DNA of 64,000 nucleotides, from positions 10,272 to 74,271 of the forward strand of contig SYHW01000068.1 of the NCBI GenBank assembly GCA_005799065.1. Reading direction: 5' to 3'. The notes below the pieces were generated by a model, which saw nothing but the letters and a program-made list of their open reading frames with translations, did no database searches and had not been told where the DNA came from. The position numbers and the translations under genes are program-made. Every line of letters begins with the position of its first letter. Within the stretch, counting starts at the first letter, position 1. Source of the stretch: Bacteroidota bacterium. GTDB taxonomy: Bacteria; Bacteroidota; Bacteroidia; UBA7662. Shown here piece after piece: positions 1,436 to 62,977 of this stretch.

Positions 1436-2491
1436 GTGGTCCGCGACTACCACGCCCGCGGCAAACTGCTTCTGACGGGGGAATATGTTGTGATGCACGG
1501 TGCGCTCGCTTTGGCTTGCCCCACCCGTCGCGGTCAATCCATGTTCATTAGCCCTTATCGGCCGGCCCGCATTCATTGGAAGGCATTCACCCCACGGGGC
1601 GAAGTATGGTTAGAAGCAGAATGGAACTGGTTGGGGATGATCCAGGAGAAAACGAAAGAACCAGTCATTCAATTTTTGGAACCGGAAGGGTTAATACCTT
1701 CGAAACTATTGGTCCTCCAAAATAAGGGAGCAGGCACCGAAGCAGCCGTTTCCCGCTTGGAATCATGGATTACTCATGCTATGTTGCTGTCGCATCAAAC
1801 CAACCCGGAGTACTTCCATGAGCAGATAGAACGGGTGAAGGCGGAAGGCATTTCGGTAGACACTTATCTAGAATTTGAACGCGATTGGGGGCTAGGTAGC
1901 AGCAGCAGCCTCATTTCTTTGTTGGCGCAATGGTGGGGTTGTAGGCCAATGGAACTTCACGCTGCGACCCAAGGTGGCAGTGGTTATGATCAGGCGTGTG
2001 CCACCGCCAGCGGGCCGATCCACTACCAACTTTTGGCACCCGCTCTTAGTCCGAACGCCCGGCCGATCGCATTCCAGCCGGACTTTCACGAGCATCTACT
2101 ATTCGTCTACACCGGCAAGAAGCAGTCGACCGATCATTCCATCCGGCAGTTCGGGCAGCGATCAACTGCAGCCGAAACCTGCCTGCAGGAAATTTCTGAG
2201 TGTACCCATCAATTAACGTTTGCCACCGATTTAATGACCTTTATGGAGATCATGCATCGGCACGAACGCATCATGTCGGGCTTATTAGGTGAAGAGCCGA
2301 TACAGTCAGCGAGATTCATCGGTTTTCCCGGACAAACCAAATCACTTGGTGCATGGGGGGGCGATTTTATCCTTGCAGCAACAACCGAACCCGAACAAGC
2401 CAAGAAATTTTTAACCAACAATGGGTTTTCGGTGATCTTCGCCTTCCATGAGTTGTTGCTTTGTCCACGCATAAACAATCCACAGACTTGA
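1436..2491 (+). CDS. GHMP-family kinase of the GYDIA type (candidate phosphomevalonate or mevalonate kinase)
   Basis: GTG start 5 nt after the HMGR stop. GHMP N-terminal motif GKLLLTGEYVVMHG, ATP loop GLGSSSS, and a GSGYDQA signature resembling the GYDIA GHMP-kinase family. Confidence 0.8.
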   Translation: MVRDYHARGKLLLTGEYVVMHGALALACPTRRGQSMFISPYRPARIHWKAFTPRGEVWLEAEWNWLGMIQEKTKEPVIQFLEPEGLIPSKLLVLQNKGAGTEAAVSRLESWITHAMLLSHQTNPEYFHEQIERVKAEGISVDTYLEFERDWGLGSSSSLISLLAQWWGCRPMELHAATQGGSGYDQACATASGPIHYQLLAPALSPNARPIAFQPDFHEHLLFVYTGKKQSTDHSIRQFGQRSTAAETCLQEISECTHQLTFATDLMTFMEIMHRHERIMSGLLGEEPIQSARFIGFPGQTKSLGAWGGDFILAATTEPEQAKKFLTNNGFSVIFAFHELLLCPRINNPQT

Positions 2492-2498
2492 CGAGCTT

Positions 2499-3821
2499 GT
2501 GCAACCACCTATGAAATCTGAGAAAAAAAAGGAAATCGATGGCCTAACCGATGGCGTTTCCGATTCCACCAAGTGTGCCGCTGGTTTATCTCCCCAGTCC
2601 CAAGGCCTCCCTCTTTCCGATCGGTTCCCCCAGTCCCAAGGCCTCCCTCTTTCCGATCGGTTCCCCCAATCCCAAAGCCTCCCTCTGTCCCAAAGCCTCC
2701 CTCTTTCCGATCGGCTTCCCCTAAAGGAAACACCCGCGCTGGAAGGCAGCGTAGCCTGGGAGGCGCCATCCAACATTGCACTCATCAAATACTGGGGAAA
2801 ATATGGGCAACAAATGCCAGCTAACCCCTCCATCAGTTTCAGCCTAAAAGCCTGTGTATCCCAAACCAAAGTCCATTTTAAACCCCAATCCGGCGGCGGG
2901 GTTCGGTTTTCACTGAGTGGGCAACAGAATCCAGATTTTCAGACCAGAATTGAGAAATTCCTCAACAGCGTGGAACTGCACTATCCTTGGCTCAGAGAAT
3001 ATGCCTTAGATATTGCGTCGACCAACAGCTTCCCCCACAGCAGTGGCATCGCCTCCTCAGCATCGGGTTTTGCCGCCTTGGCCCTGTGCGTCGAACAAAT
3101 CGACCAGCATCTACGCCTTACGGCTGAACAGGGGTCGGCTGTTCATCATCCCGAGCCGTCGGCCCACCTGGCCGATGCACATTTTTTAAACCGGGCATCC
3201 CAGTTGGCTCGTTTGGGATCGGGGTCAGCCTGCCGTTCGGTTTATGGTGGATGGGTACAGTGGGGAATGCACCCTGCCACGCCCGAAAGTCGAAATGAGT
3301 ATGCTATCGCCCACCAATCGGCCATTCACCCCGTGTTCACCGATTATCGCGACACCATCTTGCTCATTCACAAAGGAGTCAAGCAAACCGGGAGCACCGC
3401 CGGGCACAAATTGATGGAGGGTAACCCCTATGCAGATGCCCGATATCGACAGGCAAACGAGCGGATCCCCCGGCTGTTGTCGATTTTGGCATCGGGCGAT
3501 TTAACGGAATTCGGTTTATTGGTGGAGTCGGAGGCCCTCACCCTTCATGCATTGATGATGGCTTCGGAGCCCTCGTTTATGCTGATGATGCCCAATACAC
3601 TGGCCGCCATTCGCGAAATTCAGGCATTTCGCAAACAAAATGGGCTTCCCGTGCATTATACTCTGGATGCAGGTGCCAATCTGCATCTATTGTATCCCGC
3701 ACAACACGAAACGGAGGTCATGTTACTCATTAACAATAGCCTAATGCAATATTGCGAAAATCAGGCGTATATTTGTGATTCTGTGGGAACAGGTCCTCGG
3801 CCCATTAATCCCTTAGTATGA
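2499..3821 (+). CDS. mvaD: diphosphomevalonate decarboxylase with a repeat-containing N-terminal extension
   Basis: Conserved core starts at WEAPSNIALIKYWGK (about aa 87), with GIASSASG and GSGSACRS motifs. The ORF opens at GTG 2499 (ATG at 2511), so roughly the first 80 aa are low-complexity repeats. The true start is uncertain. Confidence 0.88.
   Translation: MQPPMKSEKKKEIDGLTDGVSDSTKCAAGLSPQSQGLPLSDRFPQSQGLPLSDRFPQSQSLPLSQSLPLSDRLPLKETPALEGSVAWEAPSNIALIKYWGKYGQQMPANPSISFSLKACVSQTKVHFKPQSGGGVRFSLSGQQNPDFQTRIEKFLNSVELHYPWLREYALDIASTNSFPHSSGIASSASGFAALALCVEQIDQHLRLTAEQGSAVHHPEPSAHLADAHFLNRASQLARLGSGSACRSVYGGWVQWGMHPATPESRNEYAIAHQSAIHPVFTDYRDTILLIHKGVKQTGSTAGHKLMEGNPYADARYRQANERIPRLLSILASGDLTEFGLLVESEALTLHALMMASEPSFMLMMPNTLAAIREIQAFRKQNGLPVHYTLDAGANLHLLYPAQHETEVMLLINNSLMQYCENQAYICDSVGTGPRPINPLV
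2592..2722 (+). repeat. 36-bp in-frame tandem repeat (two perfect units plus a degenerate third), encoding PQSQGLPLSDRF
   Basis: Units at 2592-2627 and 2628-2663 are identical. 2664-2722 is a degenerate continuation (PQSQSLPLSQSLPLSDRL). Confidence 0.95.
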
Positions 3822-44235: not shown

Positions 44236-47200
44236 ATGAAAAAAACGCTCTACGCTGGATTTTTCCTGTTTTTTGCTTGCATCGCCACGGCCTTCGGACA
44301 GGCCGGTACGGGTACCCTGCAAGGAAAAGTGGTGGATGACCTCAAGCCCAAGGAAGGGATTCCCTTCGCCAACGTGATTTTGGAGCAAAATGGTGCCCAA
44401 AAATCGGGTACCACCACAGACATTAACGGAGCCTATAAATTCGGTGCGGTACCTCCCGGAAAATATGATGTAAAGGTGTCTTATGTGGGCTACAACACCC
44501 GTGAAATCAAGGGTGTGTTGGTAACAGCCGACAAATCCAATTTTTTGGACATTCGCATGACGTCAGGGGTCGATTTGAGTGTCATTGACGTGGTCGATTA
44601 CGAGGTTCCACTGATCTCCAAAGACGAAACCTCAACTGGAGGCACAGTAACCCGTGAGGAGATCGCCGCTCTGCCAACCCGCGACGTAAACTCCATTGCG
44701 GCCACCACAGCGGGTGTTTTCCAGCAAGACGAAGGCAGTGCATTGAACATTAGGGGTTCTCGTTCGTCATCCACAGAATATTTTATTGATGGTATTCGTG
44801 TTCGGGGAACGACCAACTTGCCCAACGCTGCGATTGAACAAACTACAGTTATTACCGGGGGTATTCCTGCCCAATACGGAGACGCCACGGGCGGTATCAT
44901 CAACATCACAACCCGCGGCCCTTCGGGTCAATTCTATGGTGGAGCCGAGGTATTGAGTTCTTTTAAGGTGTTGGAGCCATATGGGTATAATTTGTATGCG
45001 CTCAACTTTTCCGGTCCACTGGCTAAGTCCAAAGACCGTTCCGTACTGGGGTACTTTCTTTCGGCAGAATACGAAACGCAAGTCGATCCCCGTCCATCTG
45101 CCGTCGGTGTTTGGTCGCTCAGGCCTGAAGTCCTCGACTCAATCAGCAATAATCCCTACAGGGCCTCCATTTTTGGCAGCGGCGTAAACCGCAACTCAGA
45201 ATTTGTGACCCGAGATGACATGGTATTGGGCCAGGTTCGCCCCAATGCCAACCGCGACCGTTTATCGGTTGCTGGAAAAATTGATTTCCAGCCTACACCC
45301 TTAATCGGATTTACGGTAGGTGGTAACTATGATTATGTGGATTTTCGCAACTACAGCCGTGCGAATCTGTTGTTTAGTCCAAACAACATGGGCTTCAACA
45401 CAGAGACCACAACCCGTATGTATGCACGATACAAGCAGAATTTTGCATCCTCCCAAGATGCAACGATTAAGAACGCTTACTACACGTTGCAGTTCGACTA
45501 TACCAATTCAGGTACTACCCAAGATGGTGGTGATGCGTTGGGAAGGAATCCCTTTAACTACGGCCATATTGGTAAGTTCGACTACAGCCAATTGCCCATT
45601 TTCCTGAGCGGTTCATTCGTAGATTCGGCGTCTGGCCTGCCGGTGCGCTACGATGATGTTCAGATCCTTCAGGGATTTGGTGATCGTAATCTTCGTTTCA
45701 CGCCCAGCACCATCGACCCGGGTTTATCGGTTTGGGGCACAAGCTTTTTCAATGTGCTCAGTGCAACTGAGTTCAATAGCCTGAGCGATGTGCGCTTGTT
45801 CGGCGGCTTGGTGAATGGTCTTCGTCCAGGATCAGCCTATGGTATTTGGCAAGATCCAGGCCGGCAATTTGGAGGCTATAGCTACTCGAATAACGACCTT
45901 TTCCGCTTCACCGGATTTTTCTCGGCTGATATTGGCAAGCATGCACTCAAATTCGGTTTTGAGTACGATCAACGCATCGACCGGGGGTATTCTGTGAGCG
46001 CCTATGCCGGTGGTATTGGTTTGTGGGGGATTGCCAGGGCATTAACAAACCGACACATTCTCGAATTAGATTTGGACAACCCGCTGATCGACCGTGATGA
46101 ATTTGGTTTTATGCTGGGGGATACAGTTCGCTACAACCGACTCTACAATGCGGCCAATCAATCGACCTTCGACCGCAATCTTCGTCGCTCGCTGGGCTAT
46201 GCAGACAATGATTTGAGATTCATCAATGTTGATAATTTGGATCCTGACCAATTGAAGCTGAGCTTCTTCTCTGCTGAGGAGTTGTTGAACCAAGGTAATT
46301 CTTTCGTGTCGTATAATGGATATGACTACCTCGGAAACCGTCTGGCTAAAAATCCTGGGTTCTTGGATTTCTTCAACGACCGAATCAATCGCCCGATTCC
46401 TGCTTTTCAACCCATTTATATGGCGGGCTTTATTGAGGATAAGTTTGCCTTCGATGACCTCGTGTTTCGTGTAGGTGTGCGGGTTGACCGTTTTGATGCC
46501 AATCAGCCTGTTTTGGCCGACCGTTTCCTGCTTTATCCGGCGAGAACTTTGGCCGAGGTTGATGGAGCCCTTAATTCATCGGGTGCTCACCCCAGCATTG
46601 TGCCCACCAATGCTGTTGTGTATGTTAATGATGTCAACACACCGAACCCTACGATTCTGGGTTATCGTTCTGGGGTACAGTGGTACACCGCCCAAGGAAC
46701 TGAAGTGCGGAATGCATCGGGAATTGCCGCCGCCTCTGCATCGGGTAGGGTAACCCCTTATCTTCGTGATACTAGACAAAATGAAGTCCGTGCCGATGCC
46801 TTTGTCGATTACACTCCGCAAATTAATTTCATGCCCCGCGTGGCGTTTTCATTCCCTATTTCCGATGAGGCACAGTTTTTTGCCCATTACGACGTCTTGA
46901 CCCAGCGCCCCAGTGATTTCTTCCGTTTCGATCCTCGACAGTATTTCTTTTTACAACAAATCGGAGGAACGATCAACAACCCTGACCTCAAGCCAGAGCG
47001 CACGATCGACTATCAGTTGGGTTTCAAGCAGAGATTGAATAAGTCCTCAGCCCTCACCATCAGTGCTTTCTACCGCGAGTTGCGCAATATGATCCAAATC
47101 ATCAATGTTCCTTTTGCTTTTCCATTGGACTACCGCACTTATGGTAACATTGACTTCGGAACAGTTAAAGGCTTAACATTAAGTTATGACCTCCGCAGAA

Positions 47201-47895
47201 CGGGCAATGTGCGCATCAATGCAAGCTATACCCTACAGTTTGCGGATGGAACAGGTTCAGCACCGGAGCAGGCAACGAATATTATTCAAGCGGGTATCGA
47301 CAACCTCCGTACGCCCATTCCGTTAGACTTTGATGCACGCCACCGATTAGTGGGAACGCTTGATTTCCGCTTTGGTGAAGGAAAAGATTACAGTGGTCCC
47401 CGCATAGCTGGATTCGGTTTGCTCGAGGGTATTGGCTTTAATTTGGTAGCCAATGCCATTTCTGGCACTCCTTTTTCGAGGCAGACCATTCCCACACCAG
47501 ATGGAGCAGTGGTGGGTGGACTCCAGGGAAGAACGACTTTGAAAGGTGGAATTAACGGATCAAGGCTCCCATGGCAGTTCCGAATGAATCTGCGGGTCGA
47601 TAAGGACATTAATTTCAAGATGGGTTCCGACCGCAACGACAAGCCAAGGGAGGCAACGGTGAATGTGTTTCTTCAGGTCTTGAATCTATTCAACAACATG
47701 AATGTAATCAATGTGTATCAGTTCACCGGGGATCCCTTGGATGATGGATATCTCACAAGTGATCTGGGTCGCCAGCAGGCGCAGGGTGTACTCAACCAAC
47801 AGGCTTTCTTGGACTTGTATAGAGCATCAATGGATTCTCCAGGTAATTTCAGTATTCCACGACGCACCCGTTTAGGCGTTCGCTTTAACTTCTAA
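44236..47895 (+). CDS. oversized TonB-dependent-receptor-type outer-membrane barrel with carboxypeptidase-regulatory-like N-domain
   Basis: Signal peptide. GTLQGKVVD...PPGKYDVKVSYVGY (CarboxypepD_reg-like). Plug motifs NIRGSRS, YFIDGIRV and GGIPAQYGDATGGIINITTRG. About 1000 aa of barrel-like sequence ending ...GVRFNF. Confidence 0.85.
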   Translation: MKKTLYAGFFLFFACIATAFGQAGTGTLQGKVVDDLKPKEGIPFANVILEQNGAQKSGTTTDINGAYKFGAVPPGKYDVKVSYVGYNTREIKGVLVTADKSNFLDIRMTSGVDLSVIDVVDYEVPLISKDETSTGGTVTREEIAALPTRDVNSIAATTAGVFQQDEGSALNIRGSRSSSTEYFIDGIRVRGTTNLPNAAIEQTTVITGGIPAQYGDATGGIINITTRGPSGQFYGGAEVLSSFKVLEPYGYNLYALNFSGPLAKSKDRSVLGYFLSAEYETQVDPRPSAVGVWSLRPEVLDSISNNPYRASIFGSGVNRNSEFVTRDDMVLGQVRPNANRDRLSVAGKIDFQPTPLIGFTVGGNYDYVDFRNYSRANLLFSPNNMGFNTETTTRMYARYKQNFASSQDATIKNAYYTLQFDYTNSGTTQDGGDALGRNPFNYGHIGKFDYSQLPIFLSGSFVDSASGLPVRYDDVQILQGFGDRNLRFTPSTIDPGLSVWGTSFFNVLSATEFNSLSDVRLFGGLVNGLRPGSAYGIWQDPGRQFGGYSYSNNDLFRFTGFFSADIGKHALKFGFEYDQRIDRGYSVSAYAGGIGLWGIARALTNRHILELDLDNPLIDRDEFGFMLGDTVRYNRLYNAANQSTFDRNLRRSLGYADNDLRFINVDNLDPDQLKLSFFSAEELLNQGNSFVSYNGYDYLGNRLAKNPGFLDFFNDRINRPIPAFQPIYMAGFIEDKFAFDDLVFRVGVRVDRFDANQPVLADRFLLYPARTLAEVDGALNSSGAHPSIVPTNAVVYVNDVNTPNPTILGYRSGVQWYTAQGTEVRNASGIAAASASGRVTPYLRDTRQNEVRADAFVDYTPQINFMPRVAFSFPISDEAQFFAHYDVLTQRPSDFFRFDPRQYFFLQQIGGTINNPDLKPERTIDYQLGFKQRLNKSSALTISAFYRELRNMIQIINVPFAFPLDYRTYGNIDFGTVKGLTLSYDLRRTGNVRINASYTLQFADGTGSAPEQATNIIQAGIDNLRTPIPLDFDARHRLVGTLDFRFGEGKDYSGPRIAGFGLLEGIGFNLVANAISGTPFSRQTIPTPDGAVVGGLQGRTTLKGGINGSRLPWQFRMNLRVDKDINFKMGSDRNDKPREATVNVFLQVLNLFNNMNVINVYQFTGDPLDDGYLTSDLGRQQAQGVLNQQAFLDLYRASMDSPGNFSIPRRTRLGVRFNF

Positions 47896-47898
47896 GAA

Positions 47899-50800
47899 AT
47901 GATGATCAACATGAATATTTTCAAGCATATGAAGAAAATTGGCTTAGCACTACTGTTAATTAGTGTACTTTTTACAACGGTTCAGGCACGTGAGGATCTT
48001 TCTGTGGGTAGGAGAACCGACCAGAATAACCGAAATTTTATTGCGCGCTTGGCCTCCACCTGTACGCCACCTTCTGCCAAAATCAATCTCGACATTAATA
48101 ATGTGCGTACCATGATTTTGCGTGGGAACGATATGTGGTGGGATTTGGCCAGTAATCCACGCTATGAAATTCCGAAATTGGATGACCCCAGCTTGCCGAA
48201 AAAGCACTCCTTATTTGCTGGTTCGGTTTGGGTGGGTGGTATAGATGCTGTAGGTACGCTGAAAGTGGCCGCACAAACTTATCGTCAAACGACTGTGCTC
48301 GGCGTGGGTTGGTGGGCAGGTCCATTAACCCTCGACTCAGCTACTATCTCGAAAGCTGAGTGTGACCGTTGGGATACCCATTGGAAAGTAGAACGCAAAC
48401 AGATCCAGGATCACATTGCGGGTATTGAATCGGGCGACCCGAATTATGTGGTTCCTGATGCCATTCGCAACTGGCCTGCTAGTGGCGATGTGACATTGCT
48501 TCAAGACCCCAAATTGGCACCATTCGTTGATGTTGATGCGGATGATATTTACAACCCGAGTGCGGGCGATTATCCATTCATTTATGGCGACCAATCCATT
48601 TGGTTTGTTACGAATGATAAAGGAAATGCTCCAGGATCGGGTGGTACACCGATTGGTATGGAAATTCAGACCCAGGCATTTGGATATCGATCCAATGATG
48701 AATTGAACAATATGACGTTCTATTCGAATAAAATCATCAACAGGTCGTCCATCACCCTTAATAATTGCTTTATGGCACAGTGGGTCGATCCCGATCTTGG
48801 CCAAGCTACGGATGACTTTGTGGGATGTGATGTACCTCGTGGTTTAGGAATTTGTTACAATGGAGATGATGATGATGAGGGTATTCAGGGATATGGTGTC
48901 AATCCGCCTTCCATTGGTATTGACTTTTTTGAAGGTCCATTTTCTGACTTAAATGATGATATTGATAATGATCGTGATGGAACGGTTGATGAAATCGCTG
49001 CAACGGGTTGTGATCCAGAGCCGCGAACAGAGCGTATCATAATGGCGAAGTTTCTGTACTTCAACAATGACGGTACGCCTATCGGTAACCCTTCTACTGC
49101 TGAGCATGCGTATAATTATATGATTGGAAAATGGAAGGACAACAGTCAGATGGTTTATGGTGGTACGGGTTACCCGGGCTCTGTAGGTGCAACCACCACC
49201 CCAGCGGGATTGATGTTCCCTGGTGCTTCAGATCGCGCATATGGGTGGTCTATTGGTGGCTCGGTTCAAAATCCGATTGCCCCACCCTTTGATTGGGATG
49301 AAAATAATCCAGGGCCCGGTGCTCAGGCGAATGTTCCGGCAGACCGTCGGTTTGTTCAGTCTGCGGGTCCGTTCACTTTAGTGCCCGGGGCTGTGAATTA
49401 CATCACCATTGGAGTGGTTTGGGCTCGTGCCTCCTCAGGGGGTGCGCGCGGCTCCTTCAACCAGTTGTTGCGGGCAGATTCTAAGGCTCAGGCATTGTTT
49501 GATGCCTGTTTCAAAACCATCGATGGTCCTGATGCTCCAGATGTTTCTATTACTGAGTTGGATCAGGAACTCATTCTAAGTTTCTCTTATCGGCCTACCA
49601 GCAATAACTACAATCTCGGGTACCGTGAAATAGACCCGGTTATTCAGGCTTTGAATCGTGATCTTCCGCCCGGAACGCCTTTATATGATTCGGTGTACAA
49701 GTTCGAGGGTTTTAAGGTGTACCAATTGTCGGCCTCTAATGTTTCGACCGGTGAATTAGATGATCCGAGTCGCGCTCGTCTCTTGTATCAAGGTGATCTG
49801 AACAATGGTGTATCGAGAATCATCAATTGGAATTATGATTTGGATATGGAGCAATCGGTCCCATTCATTGCTGTGGATGGCGCCAATGAGGGTGTTCGGA
49901 TGACCTTGCGTGTTACCCGCGATCTGTTTGCCGAGGGTAGTGATCGTTTGGTGAACTTCAAACGCTATTATTATTTGGTAGTGGCCTATGCTTACAACCA
50001 ATATCAAGAATTTGATCCAGTTGCGCTGACTGGTCAACAGCTTCCGTATTTGGCTGGACGTAACAACGTCTCTACCTACACGGGGATTCCTCATAAGTGG
50101 GAGCCAACCTTCAATGGCTTGATTTTGAATTCTGCCTATGGCGATGGTCCGGAAATCACCCAATTGGAAGGGCGTGGTAATGGTGGAAGGAACCTTGAAC
50201 TCACGGATGAAACGCTTGTTGAGATTCTAAATAATGGATACGCGGTAGCGCCACAGTTTGAGAGGAGTTTTGGTCCCATCGACATAAAGGTCATTGATCC
50301 TACCTTGGTGCCTCGTGCAAAAATGCAGCTCGCCATGTACAAAGGAACACCAAGTGGTACAGCAGCAGTCGATAACAGCGCCCGTTGGTATATTTTGTAC
50401 AACAACGACACGATTTTCTCTGACACGACCATTGCATTAGCTAATGAGCAGATTCTCGGTTATTACGAGTCAACGGCTATTTTCCGTCGTTTGGGATTGA
50501 GTGCCACCATTCGGAATGTTGCCCCTCCGGGAGATGCAGCAGTCCTTGAAACGGGCAATGGTTTGATTACATCCGGTTATCGTTTTTCTGAGCCATCGCG
50601 TGAGTGGATGTTTGGTTTGCCTGATGGTTTTGGCTTGTTCGATTGGATTAAAGCGGGCCCGGCTAATGTTGGCGGTGGCGATGGGTTTATCGTTGATGGT
50701 GATCCAAAACGGGCTTACGAGGGAGTAGTGCGTATGACTATTCCCGGAACGGATGTGCAAGGAGGGACTTGGTCGCCCATGCGATTCGCTATGCCATCAG

Positions 50801-51870
50801 CCATCACGCCTGGGGTTTTCGTGGATGATGTTCCACAAGCCACACCTTTCCGTTTGGCCGCTCGTCTGGATAGCTTGAAGAGTGTTGATATTGTCATTAC
50901 TCCTGATAAATCGAAATGGACGCGTTGTGTTGTCTTAGAAATGTGTGAGGCCAGTGCCGAAGCACAGGGGGGACGTCGCAGAAATCACATTCGTGATGCA
51001 GCCTCAGTGGATAAGGATGGCAATGTTGATGCCAATGAAAGCCGTCGTGGTTTGGGCTGGTTCCCTGGTTACGCCATCAGTCTGGAAACGGGCGTGCGTT
51101 TGAACATAGCCTTTGGTGAGGACAGCCGCGCTTCCCTTTCTAATGGCCGCGACATGATTTGGAACCCAAATGACACTTTATTTGGTGATGTTGGTCGTGG
51201 TCAACCCCAAATTACCATGGGGGGCAAGCATTTTATCTATGTCTTTGGCTCGCGATATGATACAGCGAATTATGTATATAATCAATTGGCTGGCCCTGGG
51301 GTGAATGTCAATAATCTTGGTAATAGCCTATTGCGCAACGTATACCGAGAGGTGTTGTGGACCTCCATTCCACTGTTGTCTCCCGGTAAGCGACTACTTG
51401 ATAATGAGGTAAAGTTTAGCATACGTGTAAATAATTCCTATGGAAAGTTTCTGGCTCCTAGTGTTCAGGCCATTAACGCAGGGAATCCTCGTTATGAGTT
51501 CGACTTAACAGATTTGGCTCCCATTAAGAATGATTTGCCTACTGCTCAAAAGGCACTCGATTTGATTAGGGTTGTGCCCAATCCGTATTATGGTGCATCA
51601 CGCTATGAGACGAGCCAGATCGACAATCGGGTGCGCATTACCAACTTACCCATTCAATGCGTGATTAAAATCTACACCTTAAACGGCACCCTGATCCGTA
51701 CCCTGAGGAAGGACGATGCCAGTACATTTGTTGACTGGGATTTATTGAATCAGGAGCGTATTCCTATTGCTAGTGGGATGTATTTGCTTCATGTGAATGC
51801 CCCGGGCATTGGTGAGAAAGTGGTGAAGTGGTTTGGGGTTACCCGGCCTATCGACTTAGATACATTCTAA
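47899..51870 (+). CDS. 1323-aa uncharacterised secreted protein with acidic Ca-binding-like loop and T9SS-like C-terminal domain
   Basis: Starts 3 nt after the barrel gene (likely signal peptide MKKIGLALLLISVLFTTVQA from ATG 47929). DDIDNDRDGTVDE loop. Last ~90 aa are VVPNPYYG...IKIYTLNGTLIRTL...ASGMYLLHV. No catalytic motif recognised. Confidence 0.8.
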   Translation: MMINMNIFKHMKKIGLALLLISVLFTTVQAREDLSVGRRTDQNNRNFIARLASTCTPPSAKINLDINNVRTMILRGNDMWWDLASNPRYEIPKLDDPSLPKKHSLFAGSVWVGGIDAVGTLKVAAQTYRQTTVLGVGWWAGPLTLDSATISKAECDRWDTHWKVERKQIQDHIAGIESGDPNYVVPDAIRNWPASGDVTLLQDPKLAPFVDVDADDIYNPSAGDYPFIYGDQSIWFVTNDKGNAPGSGGTPIGMEIQTQAFGYRSNDELNNMTFYSNKIINRSSITLNNCFMAQWVDPDLGQATDDFVGCDVPRGLGICYNGDDDDEGIQGYGVNPPSIGIDFFEGPFSDLNDDIDNDRDGTVDEIAATGCDPEPRTERIIMAKFLYFNNDGTPIGNPSTAEHAYNYMIGKWKDNSQMVYGGTGYPGSVGATTTPAGLMFPGASDRAYGWSIGGSVQNPIAPPFDWDENNPGPGAQANVPADRRFVQSAGPFTLVPGAVNYITIGVVWARASSGGARGSFNQLLRADSKAQALFDACFKTIDGPDAPDVSITELDQELILSFSYRPTSNNYNLGYREIDPVIQALNRDLPPGTPLYDSVYKFEGFKVYQLSASNVSTGELDDPSRARLLYQGDLNNGVSRIINWNYDLDMEQSVPFIAVDGANEGVRMTLRVTRDLFAEGSDRLVNFKRYYYLVVAYAYNQYQEFDPVALTGQQLPYLAGRNNVSTYTGIPHKWEPTFNGLILNSAYGDGPEITQLEGRGNGGRNLELTDETLVEILNNGYAVAPQFERSFGPIDIKVIDPTLVPRAKMQLAMYKGTPSGTAAVDNSARWYILYNNDTIFSDTTIALANEQILGYYESTAIFRRLGLSATIRNVAPPGDAAVLETGNGLITSGYRFSEPSREWMFGLPDGFGLFDWIKAGPANVGGGDGFIVDGDPKRAYEGVVRMTIPGTDVQGGTWSPMRFAMPSAITPGVFVDDVPQATPFRLAARLDSLKSVDIVITPDKSKWTRCVVLEMCEASAEAQGGRRRNHIRDAASVDKDGNVDANESRRGLGWFPGYAISLETGVRLNIAFGEDSRASLSNGRDMIWNPNDTLFGDVGRGQPQITMGGKHFIYVFGSRYDTANYVYNQLAGPGVNVNNLGNSLLRNVYREVLWTSIPLLSPGKRLLDNEVKFSIRVNNSYGKFLAPSVQAINAGNPRYEFDLTDLAPIKNDLPTAQKALDLIRVVPNPYYGASRYETSQIDNRVRITNLPIQCVIKIYTLNGTLIRTLRKDDASTFVDWDLLNQERIPIASGMYLLHVNAPGIGEKVVKWFGVTRPIDLDTF

Positions 51871-51884
51871 AAGACCGTCTATTT

Positions 51885-52937
51885 ATGAAACTGATGAATA
51901 TTTCAAGATTTTTTTTGTGTTTCGGTATCGGGGCTCTGATCAGCACGCCTGTTTGGGCCGGTAACCCTGATCGTAGAGGACAAGCGGGCGCCACTGAACT
52001 GTTGATTATGCCCTGGGCAAGAAGTTCCGGTTGGGTCGGTGTAAATTCTTCGTGTATTCGTGGCATTGAAGCAGAGCGCATGAATATTGCGGGATTGGCT
52101 TTTACCCAAAAAACTGAATTGAATTTTGCTCGAACTACCTGGTTGAGTGGTAGTGATGTGTATGTTAATGGTTTTGGTTTGGCTCAGCGTATCAACGAGT
52201 CGAGTGTTCTTGGTGTATCTGTGATGTCGCTCGATGTGGGTGCTGTGGATATCACAACCGTCGAAAGTCCGGATGGTGGTTTAGGAACGTTTAAACCTTC
52301 ATTCTCGAATATTGGATTGTCTTATGCGAAGTCTTTTTCGGATCGGATCCACGGAGGAGTAACGCTGCGGATTATATCTCAAAGTATATCCGACGTGTCC
52401 GCTCAAGGCGTGGCTTTCGATGCGGGTATCCAATACGTTACCGGTAAAAAGGAAGAAATGAAGTTCGGTATAGCCCTCCGAAACGTGGGTACACCTATGG
52501 TTTTTGGTGGGGATGGTTTATCCGCCCGTGGTACCATGCAAGGCAGTACGGTGCCTCTTACCTTGAGCCAGCGTTCTCAGGGCTTTGAATTGCCTTCCTT
52601 AATGAATATTGGTGCGTCTTATGATATTTATCTGACCGACGACGACAATTACCGCCTTACGCTTGCGGGTAATTTCGCGTCCAATTCGTTTACCAATGAT
52701 CAATATGGCTTTGGCGCAGAATTGAGTTTCAAGAATATCATCGCTCTTCGTACGGGTTATCAGGTGGAGGATAATCTCTCCGATCAGTCATTGGTTCAAA
52801 ATGTGTACACGGGCATGAATTACGGCATTTCAATCGACGCCCCCAGTGGTAAAAGTCGCTTTGGCTTCGACTACGCTTACCGGGCCAGTAACCCTTTCAG
52901 CGGCACCCACGTTATTGGTGTGCGTTACGGATTGTAA
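51885..52937 (+). CDS. PorV/PorQ-family (FadL-like) outer-membrane barrel protein
   Basis: Signal peptide MKLMNISRFFLCFGIGALISTPVWA. N-terminal GATELLIMPWARSSGW...NIAGLAF resembles the PorV-family entry motif. Alternating beta-strand pattern. Ends ...GVRYGL. The ORF track start at 51828 overlaps the upstream gene, so ATG 51885 is preferred. Confidence 0.7.
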   Translation: MKLMNISRFFLCFGIGALISTPVWAGNPDRRGQAGATELLIMPWARSSGWVGVNSSCIRGIEAERMNIAGLAFTQKTELNFARTTWLSGSDVYVNGFGLAQRINESSVLGVSVMSLDVGAVDITTVESPDGGLGTFKPSFSNIGLSYAKSFSDRIHGGVTLRIISQSISDVSAQGVAFDAGIQYVTGKKEEMKFGIALRNVGTPMVFGGDGLSARGTMQGSTVPLTLSQRSQGFELPSLMNIGASYDIYLTDDDNYRLTLAGNFASNSFTNDQYGFGAELSFKNIIALRTGYQVEDNLSDQSLVQNVYTGMNYGISIDAPSGKSRFGFDYAYRASNPFSGTHVIGVRYGL

Positions 52938-52961: not shown

Positions 52962-52993
52962 GAACGCCCCAATACGGGGCGTTCCTTTGTTTT
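52962..52993 (+). terminator. rho-independent terminator after the three-gene module
   Basis: Perfect 9-bp GC-rich stem gaacgcccc / ggggcgttc with loop aatac, followed by ctttgtttt. Confidence 0.8.
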
Positions 52994-53007: not shown

Positions 53008-53481
53008 ATGAGCGAAACATCATATTTTACACAAACCGGTCTCGATAAGTTAAAGGATGAGTTAACCGATTTAAAAACGCGCGGAAGGGCCGAAATGGCC
53101 AAAGCCATCCAAGAAGCGCGCGACAAAGGCGATCTTTCCGAAAATGCAGAATACGACGCGGCTAAGGATGCCCAAGGTCTTTTGGAAATGCGTATTGCTA
53201 AGTTGGAAAATGTTTTGGCAAGCGCTCGTGTTTTGGACGAGAGTACCATTGATTTGTCGCGCGTTCAAGTGCTGACGAAAGTAAAGATTCGGAACCTGGC
53301 CAACAATGCAGAAATGACATACAGCATTGTTTCTGAGAAGGAGGCGGATTTAAAGGCGGGTAAGATTTCCAGTACTTCACCCATTGGAAAAGGACTTGTG
53401 GGCAAAGCGAAGGGAGAAATAGCAGAAATTCAGGTGCCATCCGGGATCATGACATTTGAGATATTGGATATCAGTATTTAA
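53008..53481 (+). CDS. greA: transcription elongation factor GreA
   Basis: 157 aa. LSENAEYDAAKDAQ coiled-coil motif and a C-terminal FKBP-like domain. Confidence 0.95.
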   Translation: MSETSYFTQTGLDKLKDELTDLKTRGRAEMAKAIQEARDKGDLSENAEYDAAKDAQGLLEMRIAKLENVLASARVLDESTIDLSRVQVLTKVKIRNLANNAEMTYSIVSEKEADLKAGKISSTSPIGKGLVGKAKGEIAEIQVPSGIMTFEILDISI

Positions 53482-60722: not shown

Positions 60723-61772
60723 ATGTTTCGGGGAGAACGCGGACTCTTTTTGGCTTCATGGTGTTTGAGCGGGTTGCTTCGCCTACTGTTTCCTCGACCA
60801 CCTCAACAGCCTAAGCGAATATTGATCATACGACTCGACGAAATTGGGGATATGATCACCACGCTGCCTGTGTTTGCGCGCCTAAAAGCAGCGTATCCCC
60901 GAGCAGAAATCACCTTGTGGTGCCGCCCAGCTGTGGTGCCCATGATGCAGTCCTCAGCCCACATTCAGCGAATAATAAGCGAAAGACGTGAATTGAGGGG
61001 TCGCTATGATGTACTGGTGGATTTGCGGGGCACATACCAAAGCTTGTTCTACGCACTCAAACACCCTGCCTTTCGGGTCGACCGGGGTTCGCACCGGTTT
61101 ATGAATCGTCTTAAGCGGCGCGGTCAGCCACACGAGGTGCACATCAATCAAATCATTATTGCCCCCTTGTTGAAGCGCTCCGGACAATCCCTCACGCCAT
61201 TCCATGCCCCACGTCTTCAGATCGCCGCAAGAAACCATGAAAGCGCCACCCTTTTCTTGCAGAGGCATGCCATCGAGCGTTTTATGGTGATTCACACCGG
61301 TGCTCGTTGGGTGTATCGACGATGGGCCTTAGATAAATGGGCAGAGCTGGCTGTGGTGATGCGCCAACGCCACGAATGTGAAATCGTATTCGTGGGAGGT
61401 GCCGATGATGTGGCAGACATCCGAAAAATCATGAGGATACTTCCTTTCGAGGCCTACAGTTGGGCCGGACAATCCTCGCTTTTGGATTATGCCGCATTGG
61501 TTTCGAGAGCAGTGTGTATGATTGGCAATGAAAGCGGCCCAATGCACATCGCTGCAGCCATGGATGTGCCTGTGATTGCCCTTTTTGGCCCGGGTATCCC
61601 ATCAGTCTTTGCACCCTATGGGTCCAAGGCGCAGTTCATTCACCATAAATTACCGTGCAACCCGTGTGCCCAAAAAACCTGTGTGTTGCCCGACAATCCC
61701 TGTATGAATCGAATCAGTGTTCAAGATGTCTTGCGGCTTGTGCAGAACATAGACGGGGTAGTGTTGGGGTAA
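60723..61772 (+). CDS. glycosyltransferase family 9 (heptosyltransferase-like)
   Basis: ILIIRLDEIGDMITTLPVF N-terminal motif and a C-terminal GNESGPMHIAAAMDVPVIALFGP motif. Confidence 0.85.
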   Translation: MFRGERGLFLASWCLSGLLRLLFPRPPQQPKRILIIRLDEIGDMITTLPVFARLKAAYPRAEITLWCRPAVVPMMQSSAHIQRIISERRELRGRYDVLVDLRGTYQSLFYALKHPAFRVDRGSHRFMNRLKRRGQPHEVHINQIIIAPLLKRSGQSLTPFHAPRLQIAARNHESATLFLQRHAIERFMVIHTGARWVYRRWALDKWAELAVVMRQRHECEIVFVGGADDVADIRKIMRILPFEAYSWAGQSSLLDYAALVSRAVCMIGNESGPMHIAAAMDVPVIALFGPGIPSVFAPYGSKAQFIHHKLPCNPCAQKTCVLPDNPCMNRISVQDVLRLVQNIDGVVLG

Positions 61773-61805
61773 ATCAGTTAATTTTACCAGATAAATCACC
61801 GGTTA

Positions 61806-62977
61806 TGTTGAAAAAATGTATCATACTGTTGGGTTTGCTGGCGTTAAGGAGCATGCAGCCCGCTCGATCTCAAAATGATGTGGTATTGTCGCTCGCTGCA
61901 GGTCGAGAAGACGCTGAAAAGTTGATGAGTGCCTACCTAGACCCTTTTGGACAAGCATTTTCGCTCGGACTCGCCCAAAATTGGAATCAAACAGCCAAGC
62001 CATTGAAGCTGCTGCGGTTTAATGTGCAGGGTGGACTCAGCTTGGTGGCCATACCAGGCGAAGACCAGTACTTCTACCCCGAGAATTTAGGGCTTAGTAG
62101 TCTACGTCCACTCGATGCCCGGTCTACCACACTCGCTGGACCATCCAACCTGAGCTCGGCATATGTTGTGCAGGTCTCGGATCCCCTTAACCCCGGTAGT
62201 ACATTAACATTAGATACGCTAAGCGGTTTAACACCCGGCTTGGGTTTGGGACGAGTGCCAGCGCCTTTTGTTCAGTTCAATATTGGTCTTCCCGCGGGAA
62301 CGGAGTTGTCGATTCGATTGCTTCCACGATCGAGTTTATCCGGCATAGCGGGCGACATAAGCGCTTTGCCGGAACAACTTCGTGAGGATGGCAACCTGAC
62401 TTTCTGGGGTGTTGGTGTCAAGCATAGCTTATCGCAGTATCTTCCAAGGCTCCTGAAGGTGGTTCCACTCGATCTCAGCGCTTATGCCAACCATTGTGTG
62501 ATTGAATACAGACAGGACGTGCGCATCGCGGGTCCCACTGCGGCCGATTATCCCCGCGGCGTAAACGGGATGGTCACTGGATTTAGGTATGCAGGTGGGC
62601 AATCACCTGCGGATGTTACGACCCAACAATTGGTTTTAGGCAGCACGGCGAGTAGTGCAGGGCTTATACTTTCCAAGAAAATAGCCTTATTTACGCCCTA
62701 TGTACGGGCTGGTCTGATGCGCAGTAGTTTTTCATTGGCTGCGGAAGGGCAATACGATGTGCCCACTGCCCTGGTGGCGAACACCCAAAACCCAGGCACC
62801 CTCATTCAGGAATACAGCAACATCACCAAGCCCGTAGAAGTTAAAACACAGGTCGACAACTTCGGTCACTATGGCGTTGGTCTCCGTGTCAAATTTTTGG
62901 TTTTTTCAGCCCATGCAGAGATGGTCCAAATGGGTCGCTGGACTGCTTATAACGCGGGCTTATCCGTCGGTTTCTGA
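61806..62977 (+). CDS. hypothetical outer-membrane beta-barrel-like protein
   Basis: Signal peptide MLKKCIILLGLLALRSMQPARSQ from ATG 61806 (the ORF track start at 61655 overlaps GT9). Alternating beta pattern. The C-terminus ...YNAGLSVGF ends in an aromatic residue. Confidence 0.65.

Follow-up and report, generated by a model that had tools for sequence, protein, structure and literature searches.

What does a large secreted protein do when it carries no recognisable domain and is encoded beside a PorV-like barrel? This question is raised by P0001, a 1323-residue protein encoded in a 64,000-nucleotide stretch of a Bacteroidota bacterium (lineage UBA7662 of the class Bacteroidia; assembly GCA_005799065.1, contig SYHW01000068.1, positions 10,272 to 74,271 of the forward strand), hereafter the window. 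A preliminary description, made from the DNA letters alone, had cautiously read P0001 as a surface protein of a family without assigned function. That reading of the protein is supported by the present analysis, but three features of the locus had been missed: P0001 is the middle product of a three-gene module found throughout the phylum, the gene before it encodes a TonB-dependent transporter that belongs to the unit, and the module occurs in multiple copies in other classes of the phylum.

We propose that P0001 would enter the periplasm through the Sec pathway and then cross the outer membrane through the secretion system of type IX (T9SS) by means of its C-terminal domain (CTD). Unlike the CTD of ordinary cargo, this domain would be kept, as it is in PorZ and PorU, and together with a conserved extra tail it would dock on a dedicated barrel of the PorV/PorQ family, encoded by the next gene downstream. 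Docking would hold the 130-kDa, beta-rich body of P0001 at the cell surface, where its N-terminal core of ~650 residues would partner the TonB-dependent transporter encoded directly upstream, and P0001 would most likely be the part of an uptake machine that captures the substrate or forms a lid. We give this whole chain, from T9SS export through a CTD retained on its own barrel to a surface partner of an uptake transporter, a rough probability of one half. Taken singly, the pairing of CTD and barrel and the functional partnership of P0001 with the transporter are each likely.

The open reading frame of P0001 is a real gene and not a chance product, since a word-indexed search returned more than 6,851 matches and, among the matches listed, these were full-length, at 41-99% identity. 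No homologue among the matches listed had a precomputed Pfam domain, and homologue clusters were named only "hypothetical protein" or "T9SS C-terminal target domain-containing protein". As previously described, there is no lipobox and the signal peptide ends in TTVQA/RED, and the stretches DMWWDL, VWVGGIDAVG, GVGWWAGPL, NGDDDDEG and DDIDNDRDGTVDE are all present in the translation. Judged from the sequence, a start at M11 (MKKIGLALLL...) may be equally possible; the family consensus N-terminus in an alignment of 61 sequences begins MK....

Gaps of 3 nt between transporter and P0001 and of 14 nt between P0001 and barrel (Table 1) suggest that the three genes form a single transcription unit, which would be closed by a terminator-like hairpin before greA. 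The greA gene lies downstream of this hairpin (window positions 53008-53481), and because the hairpin separates it from the module here, we take greA for a neighbour of conserved position that lies outside the unit. The first gene encodes an apparently intact TonB-dependent transporter in which the plug, the barrel, a TonB-box-like stretch and the terminal Phe are all present. In Pfam it matched CarboxypepD_reg (60.5 bits), Plug (47.1 bits) and TonB_dep_Rec_b-barrel (50.4 bits), each above its cut-off, and conservation across 52 transporter orthologues includes the TonB-box-like V.V..Y.VPLI, the plug motifs and the ...RLGVxFNF end. No SusC/RagA model or specific equivalog was found among its 14 NCBIfam matches at E ≤ 0.01, a Pfam-A search at E ≤ 1 found no SusD domain in P0001, the product of the gene that follows, and a search of the whole window against Rfam gave no riboswitch by which to name the transporter substrate. 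The third gene encodes a barrel that scored 137.9 bits against the PorV-family model NF033709 (cut-off 90) and stayed under the equivalog cut-offs for PorQ (NF033711, 69.8 against 220), PorV (NF033710, 59.9 against 250) and PorV2 (43.6 against 325). The PorP/SprF model TIGR03519 matched only the last third of the barrel (E 3.8e-5). As PorV and PorQ proper are encoded elsewhere in the genome, the module barrel is a fourth member of the PorV/PorQ family.

The gene order is conserved well beyond the window. In a set of 80 loci from species-representative genomes, with counts restricted to loci with room for the neighbour in question, a transporter homologue lay directly upstream of the P0001 homologue at 60 of 63 loci and a barrel homologue directly downstream at 68 of 73. 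The next gene after the module was greA at 63 of 70 loci, in several orders of Bacteroidia and with no obvious functional link. P0001 homologues in other classes of the phylum are 1000-1270 residues long and match residues ~50-700 and the CTD. The full trio was found at five of the first six loci from these classes (L091-L094 and L097); the sixth (L098, 5327-9322) encodes a standalone paralogue, 27% identical over residues 231-701, which lies away from any transporter or barrel gene and ends in a canonical Por_Secre_tail (46 bits), not a PorZ-like tail. A further 20 loci yielded 18 full trios, and one of the remaining two ends at a contig end. Genomes of these classes hold several modules each, with two in tandem in one case. 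Moreover, all eight loci found through the CTD alone (L119-L126) carry the trio and constitute a sister branch, whose middle proteins have 1046-1287 residues and no Pfam domain. An hhalign comparison of the P0001 family with this branch gave a probability of 100% (E 1.3e-49, 884 columns, 17% identity). Since the middle proteins of the sister branch are homologous to the P0001 family, the module is an old, duplicating unit of at least two deep branches. The presence of several modules per genome fits substrate-diversified uptake better than a single housekeeping structure.

The size of P0001 and its PorV-like neighbour recall porU-porV, and its tail is nearest to that of PorZ, which raises the question of whether it is a divergent PorU or PorZ paralogue and hence itself part of the attachment complex of the T9SS. 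Profile searches of the source assembly (1.86 Mb, 69 contigs, 85% complete), however, located a genuine PorU on another contig (NF033707, 1246.8 bits, C55:13777-17103), directly adjoined by a genuine PorV (483.5 bits), together with a genuine PorZ (539.2 bits, contig C2) and PorQ (279.2 bits), both off the contig of the window; each exceeded its curated cut-off. P0001 was rejected as PorU because the sortase model misses its body, NF033707 giving no match to P0001 at E ≤ 1, and because neither Pfam nor NCBIfam detected a C25 peptidase; the preliminary description had also remarked on the resemblance to PorU while finding no C25 contexts. It was rejected as PorZ because the match to the PorZ model is confined to its final ~90 residues and no beta-propeller appeared among the Foldseek matches. 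Since this genome has a genuine PorU-PorV pair, PorZ and PorQ at other sites, P0001 is neither PorU nor PorZ, and a role as a paralogue of either is effectively excluded.

What P0001 does have in common with PorU and PorZ is its CTD, which folds as a T9SS-type beta-sandwich. An AlphaFold2 model of residues 1190-1323 (predicted local distance difference test score, pLDDT, 85.3) contains seven strands. Its top Foldseek match was the CTD of PorZ (5m11; E 6.8e-6, query template modelling score, TMq, 0.53, 27% identity), followed by NucA and RemZ, whose CTDs are seen bound in complexes with SprA (8glk_D and 8gl8_D), and then by PorU (6za2), so that the fold supposed for this segment in the preliminary description is borne out by model and search alike. 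Published T9SS CTD structures are described as compact immunoglobulin-like beta-sandwiches with seven strands in a 3+4 arrangement (PMC11285876). Pfam-A gave no match of any kind to P0001, even at E ≤ 1, and thus none to PF18962, and NCBIfam gave only two, both weak and lying within the final ~100 residues. One was to the tail of the PorZ model NF052228, at residues 1216-1309 (E 1.4e-5, 23.7 bits; cut-off 260). The same PorZ tail scored best, at E 1e-9 to 3e-6, on module-linked homologues of other classes, and the PorU tail model was also matched in three of five of these. The general CTD model TIGR04183 scored 15.7-26.9 bits on P0001 homologues, two of which exceed its cut-off of 23. Type-A motifs are present in the P0001 CTD as VVPNPYY, GMYLLHV and GEKVVKW. 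Identity to homologues reaches 57-64% in the CTD and 79% in the last 14 residues, the best-conserved bin of the protein, against ~46% in the body; between classes, identity in the CTD is 55%.

The CTD of P0001 also extends past the usual end of such domains. PorU, PorZ and another cargo protein of the same genome end in ...KLVILR, ...KVVVIR and ...KLVIIR, whereas P0001 runs on to ...KVVKWFGVTRPIDLDTF. The motif RPx[DEN][LIVMF]xx[FYW]-COOH closes 57 of the 81 family members that have a complete end and room downstream. Members from other classes end in ...IQEQQILDRF, and sister-branch proteins end in ...GEKIGKFALIK, with no extra tail. The idea that RPxDLxx[F/Y] marks only barrel-linked copies was rejected, as the motif is present in five of seven copies that have room downstream but lack an adjacent barrel gene. 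Because such copies keep the motif and the sister branch is tail-less, the tail cannot be the sole determinant of docking; it is a feature of a lineage and not a universal determinant. In the T9SS, PorU and PorZ are themselves T9SS cargo with unprocessed CTDs, PorU remains bound to PorV and PorZ to PorQ, and it has been hypothesised that cognate PorV-like barrels may shield CTDs from cleavage (PMC10202324). Taken together, a CTD that resembles those of PorZ and PorU, is conserved above the level of the body and co-varies specifically with the adjacent barrel (see below) lends indirect support to the earlier suggestion that the P0001 CTD is retained, and it is probably uncleaved.

Co-variation within the module was measured by a mirror-tree comparison of pairwise distances in the 52 modules that had complete copies of all four genes, using partial correlations that control for greA and for the other parts. 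The CTD co-varied with the barrel (partial r 0.41, p 0.001) but not with the transporter (partial r 0.08, p 0.17), while the N-terminal core showed the opposite pattern, co-varying with the transporter (partial r 0.43, p 0.001) but not with the barrel (partial r 0.09, p 0.105). When 114-residue windows along P0001 were scanned against the barrel, the CTD scored highest (0.418); the other windows had a mean of 0.003, a standard deviation of 0.136 and a maximum of 0.294, the latter in the window that immediately precedes the CTD. The window with the strongest co-variation with the transporter was residues 667-780 (0.364). The contrast was robust to the use of ranks and to de-duplication to 41 taxa, and of 500 subsamples at least 99.8% reproduced it. 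As parts of one protein are compared, shared history is controlled, but mirror-tree tests cannot prove contact.

These results bear on a second explanation, in which the barrel is a dedicated export adaptor. The barrel would then be an SprF/PorP-like helper, the CTD would be cleaved, P0001 would be released or attached to lipopolysaccharide, and the linkage to the transporter would reflect a shared pathway. Barrels of the PorP/SprF type are PorV-like and are deployed for particular substrates (PMC10202324), the CTD has type-A motifs and some homologues pass TIGR04183, and co-variation of CTD and barrel would be equally expected from a transient but specific interaction. However, P0001 is best conserved in its CTD and tail, which is unusual in a disposable signal, the nearest structure and sequence matches are two retained CTDs, and the barrel belongs to the PorV/PorQ and not the PorP/SprF family; we consider this explanation unlikely. 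A related system is SprB-SprF of Flavobacterium johnsoniae, in which the cargo gene adjoins a dedicated PorV-like barrel and the SprB CTD is itself thought to be uncleaved (PMC10202324). The P0001 module differs from SprB-SprF in having a CTD that is type-A-like and not type B, a barrel of the PorV/PorQ family, a transporter in the unit and no link to gliding.

The body of P0001 gave few clues to function. Sequence searches of the PDB with P0001 and with the 61-sequence family profile found no significant match, and the body of P0001, of its other-class homologues and of the sister branch contains no Pfam or NCBIfam domain. An AlphaFold2 model of residues 31-1215, built from the 61-sequence alignment (pLDDT 87.1, predicted template modelling score 0.70), consists largely of beta structure and has a few helices. 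Foldseek of the body against the PDB returned marginal matches only (E 3e-4 to 1e-2, template modelling scores 0.11-0.22, root-mean-square deviation >10 Å), to enzymes of families GH94, GH116, GH15 and GH65, and a search of the 1185-residue body against viral structures gave generic FN3-type matches only. The body thus has no convincing relative in the PDB by a whole-model search, which may hide matches at the level of domains. In line with the earlier statement that no catalytic domain can be recognised, searches with Pfam, NCBIfam, the PDB and Foldseek detected no known catalytic or adhesin family in P0001.

T9SS cargo is often degradative, and P0001 might accordingly represent a new family of surface enzymes. 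It would then attack a polymer as a hydrolase or lyase, the products would enter via the transporter, and anchoring would be optional. Conservation spans the full length of P0001, with ~100 invariant columns among the 61 sequences, and many invariant D, E, H, R, Y and S residues occur in stretches such as PADRRF, GWFPGYAINLETGERLNIxFGEDS and GGKHxIYV; to these may be added the weak Foldseek likeness to GH94, GH116, GH15 and GH65. These glycoside hydrolase families share an N-terminal beta-supersandwich domain, however, and the matches are to this accessory type of domain, at deviations above 10 Å, while no catalytic family was found by sequence or fold. The strongly conserved motifs of the C-terminal half cannot carry the core function, as they are absent from homologues in other classes that keep the module. 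An enzymatic role therefore appears rather doubtful. The faint modelled similarity to carbohydrate-binding supersandwich domains makes a glycan substrate a weak guess.

The N-terminal core was matched in all homologues from other classes, residues 49-700 being 36% identical to an other-class homologue, below the level of the CTD in the same comparison. Within it lie two acidic stretches, NGDDDDEG beginning at residue 321 and DDIDNDRDGTVDE at residues 352-364, which the preliminary description had likened to dockerin or EF-hand loops. The DxDxDG pattern is there and is conserved in the family: the consensus DGIDNDRDGxxDE is invariant or nearly so among the 61 sequences, and the sister branch has DGxDNDxDGxIDE. 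The likeness to dockerins and EF-hands went no further, as no dockerin or EF-hand model matched these loops in Pfam-A at E ≤ 1, and the sole PDB sequence match there was an insignificant one to an EF-hand kinase (E 0.8). Because the loop fits neither kind of model, calcium binding is suggested at the level of the pattern only.

The transporter raises another possibility, that the module forms a structural coat or works outward and does not import nutrients. The transporter has the CarboxypepD_reg-plug-barrel architecture that is also found in Oar of Myxococcus xanthus. Oar is reported to be a TonB-dependent transporter required for secretion of PopC, so that a requirement for such a transporter in protein secretion is on record (PMC6434023). 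The likeness, a TonB-type barrel tied to a secreted protein, is one of architecture only; Oar belongs to a different phylum, and the secreted partner in the module has its own T9SS signal. The single-copy module beside greA in streamlined Bacteroidia genomes has a housekeeping-like appearance that would suit a coat. However, P0001 already carries an export signal of its own, its T9SS CTD. Several divergent modules per genome in other classes are, moreover, as found in substrate-specific uptake loci. A coat or an outward-working barrel is in our view improbable.

We therefore favour P0001 as a surface partner of an uptake system, on the grounds of the ancient linkage to the transporter, the co-variation of core and transporter and the multiplied, divergent modules elsewhere in the phylum. 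Several observations weigh against this view. No binding or catalytic site is recognised in the body of P0001, and the inward direction of transport is presumed, with Oar as a precedent for secretion. SprA (TIGR04189) was not found in the 85% complete source assembly, most likely owing to the absent 15% of this metagenome-assembled genome, and TIGR04183 scored 18.3 bits on P0001, under its cut-off. The tail motif is carried by second copies without an adjacent barrel gene and is missing from the sister branch. The mirror-tree correlations may stem from shared rate variation of linked genes, and the partial Mantel p-values are optimistic, with the comparison of parts of the same protein as the only internal control. 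Finally, genomes with the module appear poor in SusD genes (0-6 in twelve genomes with it, 8-33 in four without), but this contrast is drawn from only 16 hand-picked genomes and is only a lead.

The distribution of the family is compatible with a dependence on the T9SS. When 1.84 billion representatives were searched exhaustively with HMMER, 7,198 clusters (50% identity) matched at E ≤ 1e-3, of which 2,322 were retained at E ≤ 1e-30. The module is also carried by several complete genomes. In a sample of 301 genomes spread evenly over the phylum, a P0001 homologue (E ≤ 1e-20) was present in 79 genomes and in 62 of 144 genera; about a dozen of the sampled genomes of the window's own class have one, usually in one or two copies. 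All 78 family-positive genomes sampled for SprA have it, and it is present in 233 of the 301 genomes of the phylum sample. This co-occurrence agrees with a dependence of P0001 on the T9SS but is a weak and phylogenetically confounded test, because the genomes without SprA come almost all from one family, itself without the module.

Two groups of known systems invite comparison with the module. The first comprises PorZ-PorQ and PorU-PorV of Porphyromonas gingivalis, where a large T9SS-exported surface protein keeps its CTD, as P0001 probably does, and is paired with a PorV/PorQ-family barrel. The genes of P0001 and its barrel are adjacent, as are porU and porV in the source genome. Against this, the body of P0001 is unrelated, with no C25 peptidase or beta-propeller match, its CTD has an extra conserved tail, the module barrel is not an equivalog of PorV or PorQ, the unit includes a transporter, and the module is multi-copy elsewhere. 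The second group is formed by SusC/SusD and BtuB-BtuG. SusD and BtuG are surface lipoproteins that act as substrate-capturing or lid partners of other Bacteroidota transporters. As in these systems, the transporter gene of the module is followed directly by the gene for a putative extracellular partner, and the locus has been multiplied and diversified within genomes. P0001 differs in being not a lipoprotein but a protein with a T9SS CTD, an unmatched fold and its own barrel; it is also two to three times larger than SusD, and the module transporter fits no SusC/RagA model.

Full-text literature searches found no description of the transporter-P0001-barrel module. T9SS cargo, PorV-family barrels and TonB-dependent transporters are known kinds of protein. 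What is new is the way they are combined, together with the body's fold and the occurrence of multiple copies outside Bacteroidia, and there is a fair chance that the module is a distinct class of machine. More tentatively, and at somewhat less than even odds, the trio may represent an undescribed, phylum-wide class of uptake machine built on a T9SS cargo protein, not a lipoprotein, that is permanently docked on its own PorV/PorQ-family barrel by way of an uncleaved, PorZ-like CTD, and multiplied in the manner of polysaccharide utilisation loci where SusCD pairs are few. If so, the module would physically join type IX secretion and TonB-dependent uptake, two hallmarks of the phylum, and would provide a second, T9SS-dependent route to nutrient capture at the surface. 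It would also extend the kinds of CTD-barrel pair, PorU-PorV and PorZ-PorQ, by a third, and protection by a cognate barrel would explain why some CTDs escape cleavage. In classes outside Bacteroidia the module is a possible counterpart of polysaccharide utilisation loci. The family itself, ~7,200 clusters without a Pfam or NCBIfam model, a structure or a functional name, is common among abundant uncultured Bacteroidota of freshwater, marine, gut and groundwater habitats.

Table 1. Features of the P0001 module, in window coordinates.
Feature	Position	Strand	Basis or description
TonB-dependent transporter, first module gene	44236..47895	+	1219 residues; Pfam and conserved motifs
P0001, middle module gene	47899..51870	+	1323 residues; stop-free translation
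Sec signal peptide, P0001 residues 1-30	47899..47988	+	Read from sequence: MMINMNIFKHMKKIGLALLLISVLFTTVQA/RED
N-terminal core, P0001 residues ~50-700	48046..49998	+	Only part of the body conserved across the classes of the phylum
Acidic loops, P0001 residues 321-364	48859..48990	+	NGDDDDEG ... DDIDNDRDGTVDE; putative DxDxDG-type calcium sites
CTD, P0001 residues 1210-1323	51526..51867	+	T9SS type-A-like seven-strand beta-sandwich, PorZ/PorU-like
Tail RPIDLDTF-COOH, past the usual CTD end	51838..51867	+	Comparison with other CTD ends of the genome
PorV/PorQ-family (FadL-like) outer-membrane barrel, third module gene	51885..52937	+	350 residues; NF033709
Terminator-like hairpin	52962..52984	+	9-bp stem with 7 G-C pairs, T-rich tail; consensus scan only

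Some loci contain extra copies of the P0001 family after the module or in tandem (L018, 11328-15389; L075, 11171-15316; L084; L105, 2594-10434). These copies come with no second transporter or barrel gene, and most keep the same C-terminal tail. Trios of the sister branch are often flanked by proteins with canonical T9SS CTDs ending in ...KKMILLK or ...KKMLYLK (for example L119, 9103-10971; L120, 8471-10957; L123, 3-2402), which hints that further, ordinary T9SS cargo may be encoded there, as would be expected of a utilisation locus.

In the source genome, contig C2 (G000:C2, locus L005) encodes another, unassigned barrel of the PorV/PorQ family (locus positions 1447-2454; NF033709 196.8 bits, no equivalog), whose stop codon is overlapped by the start of a gene for a 410-residue lipoprotein without an NCBIfam match (2451-3683). 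The two may be a barrel-partner pair of a different kind. A module 95% identical to that of the window lies on VHAX01000003.1 (L011), from a metagenome-assembled genome labelled "Sphingomonadales bacterium", and several other loci have placeholder labels such as "Chitinophaga pinensis", "Bifidobacterium sp." or "Chryseobacterium gleum"; such labels look wrong for contigs with T9SS modules. Elsewhere in the window, positions 61655-62977 encode a 440-residue secreted protein with a DUF6588 match (192 bits), situated among glycosyltransferase and O-antigen-type genes.

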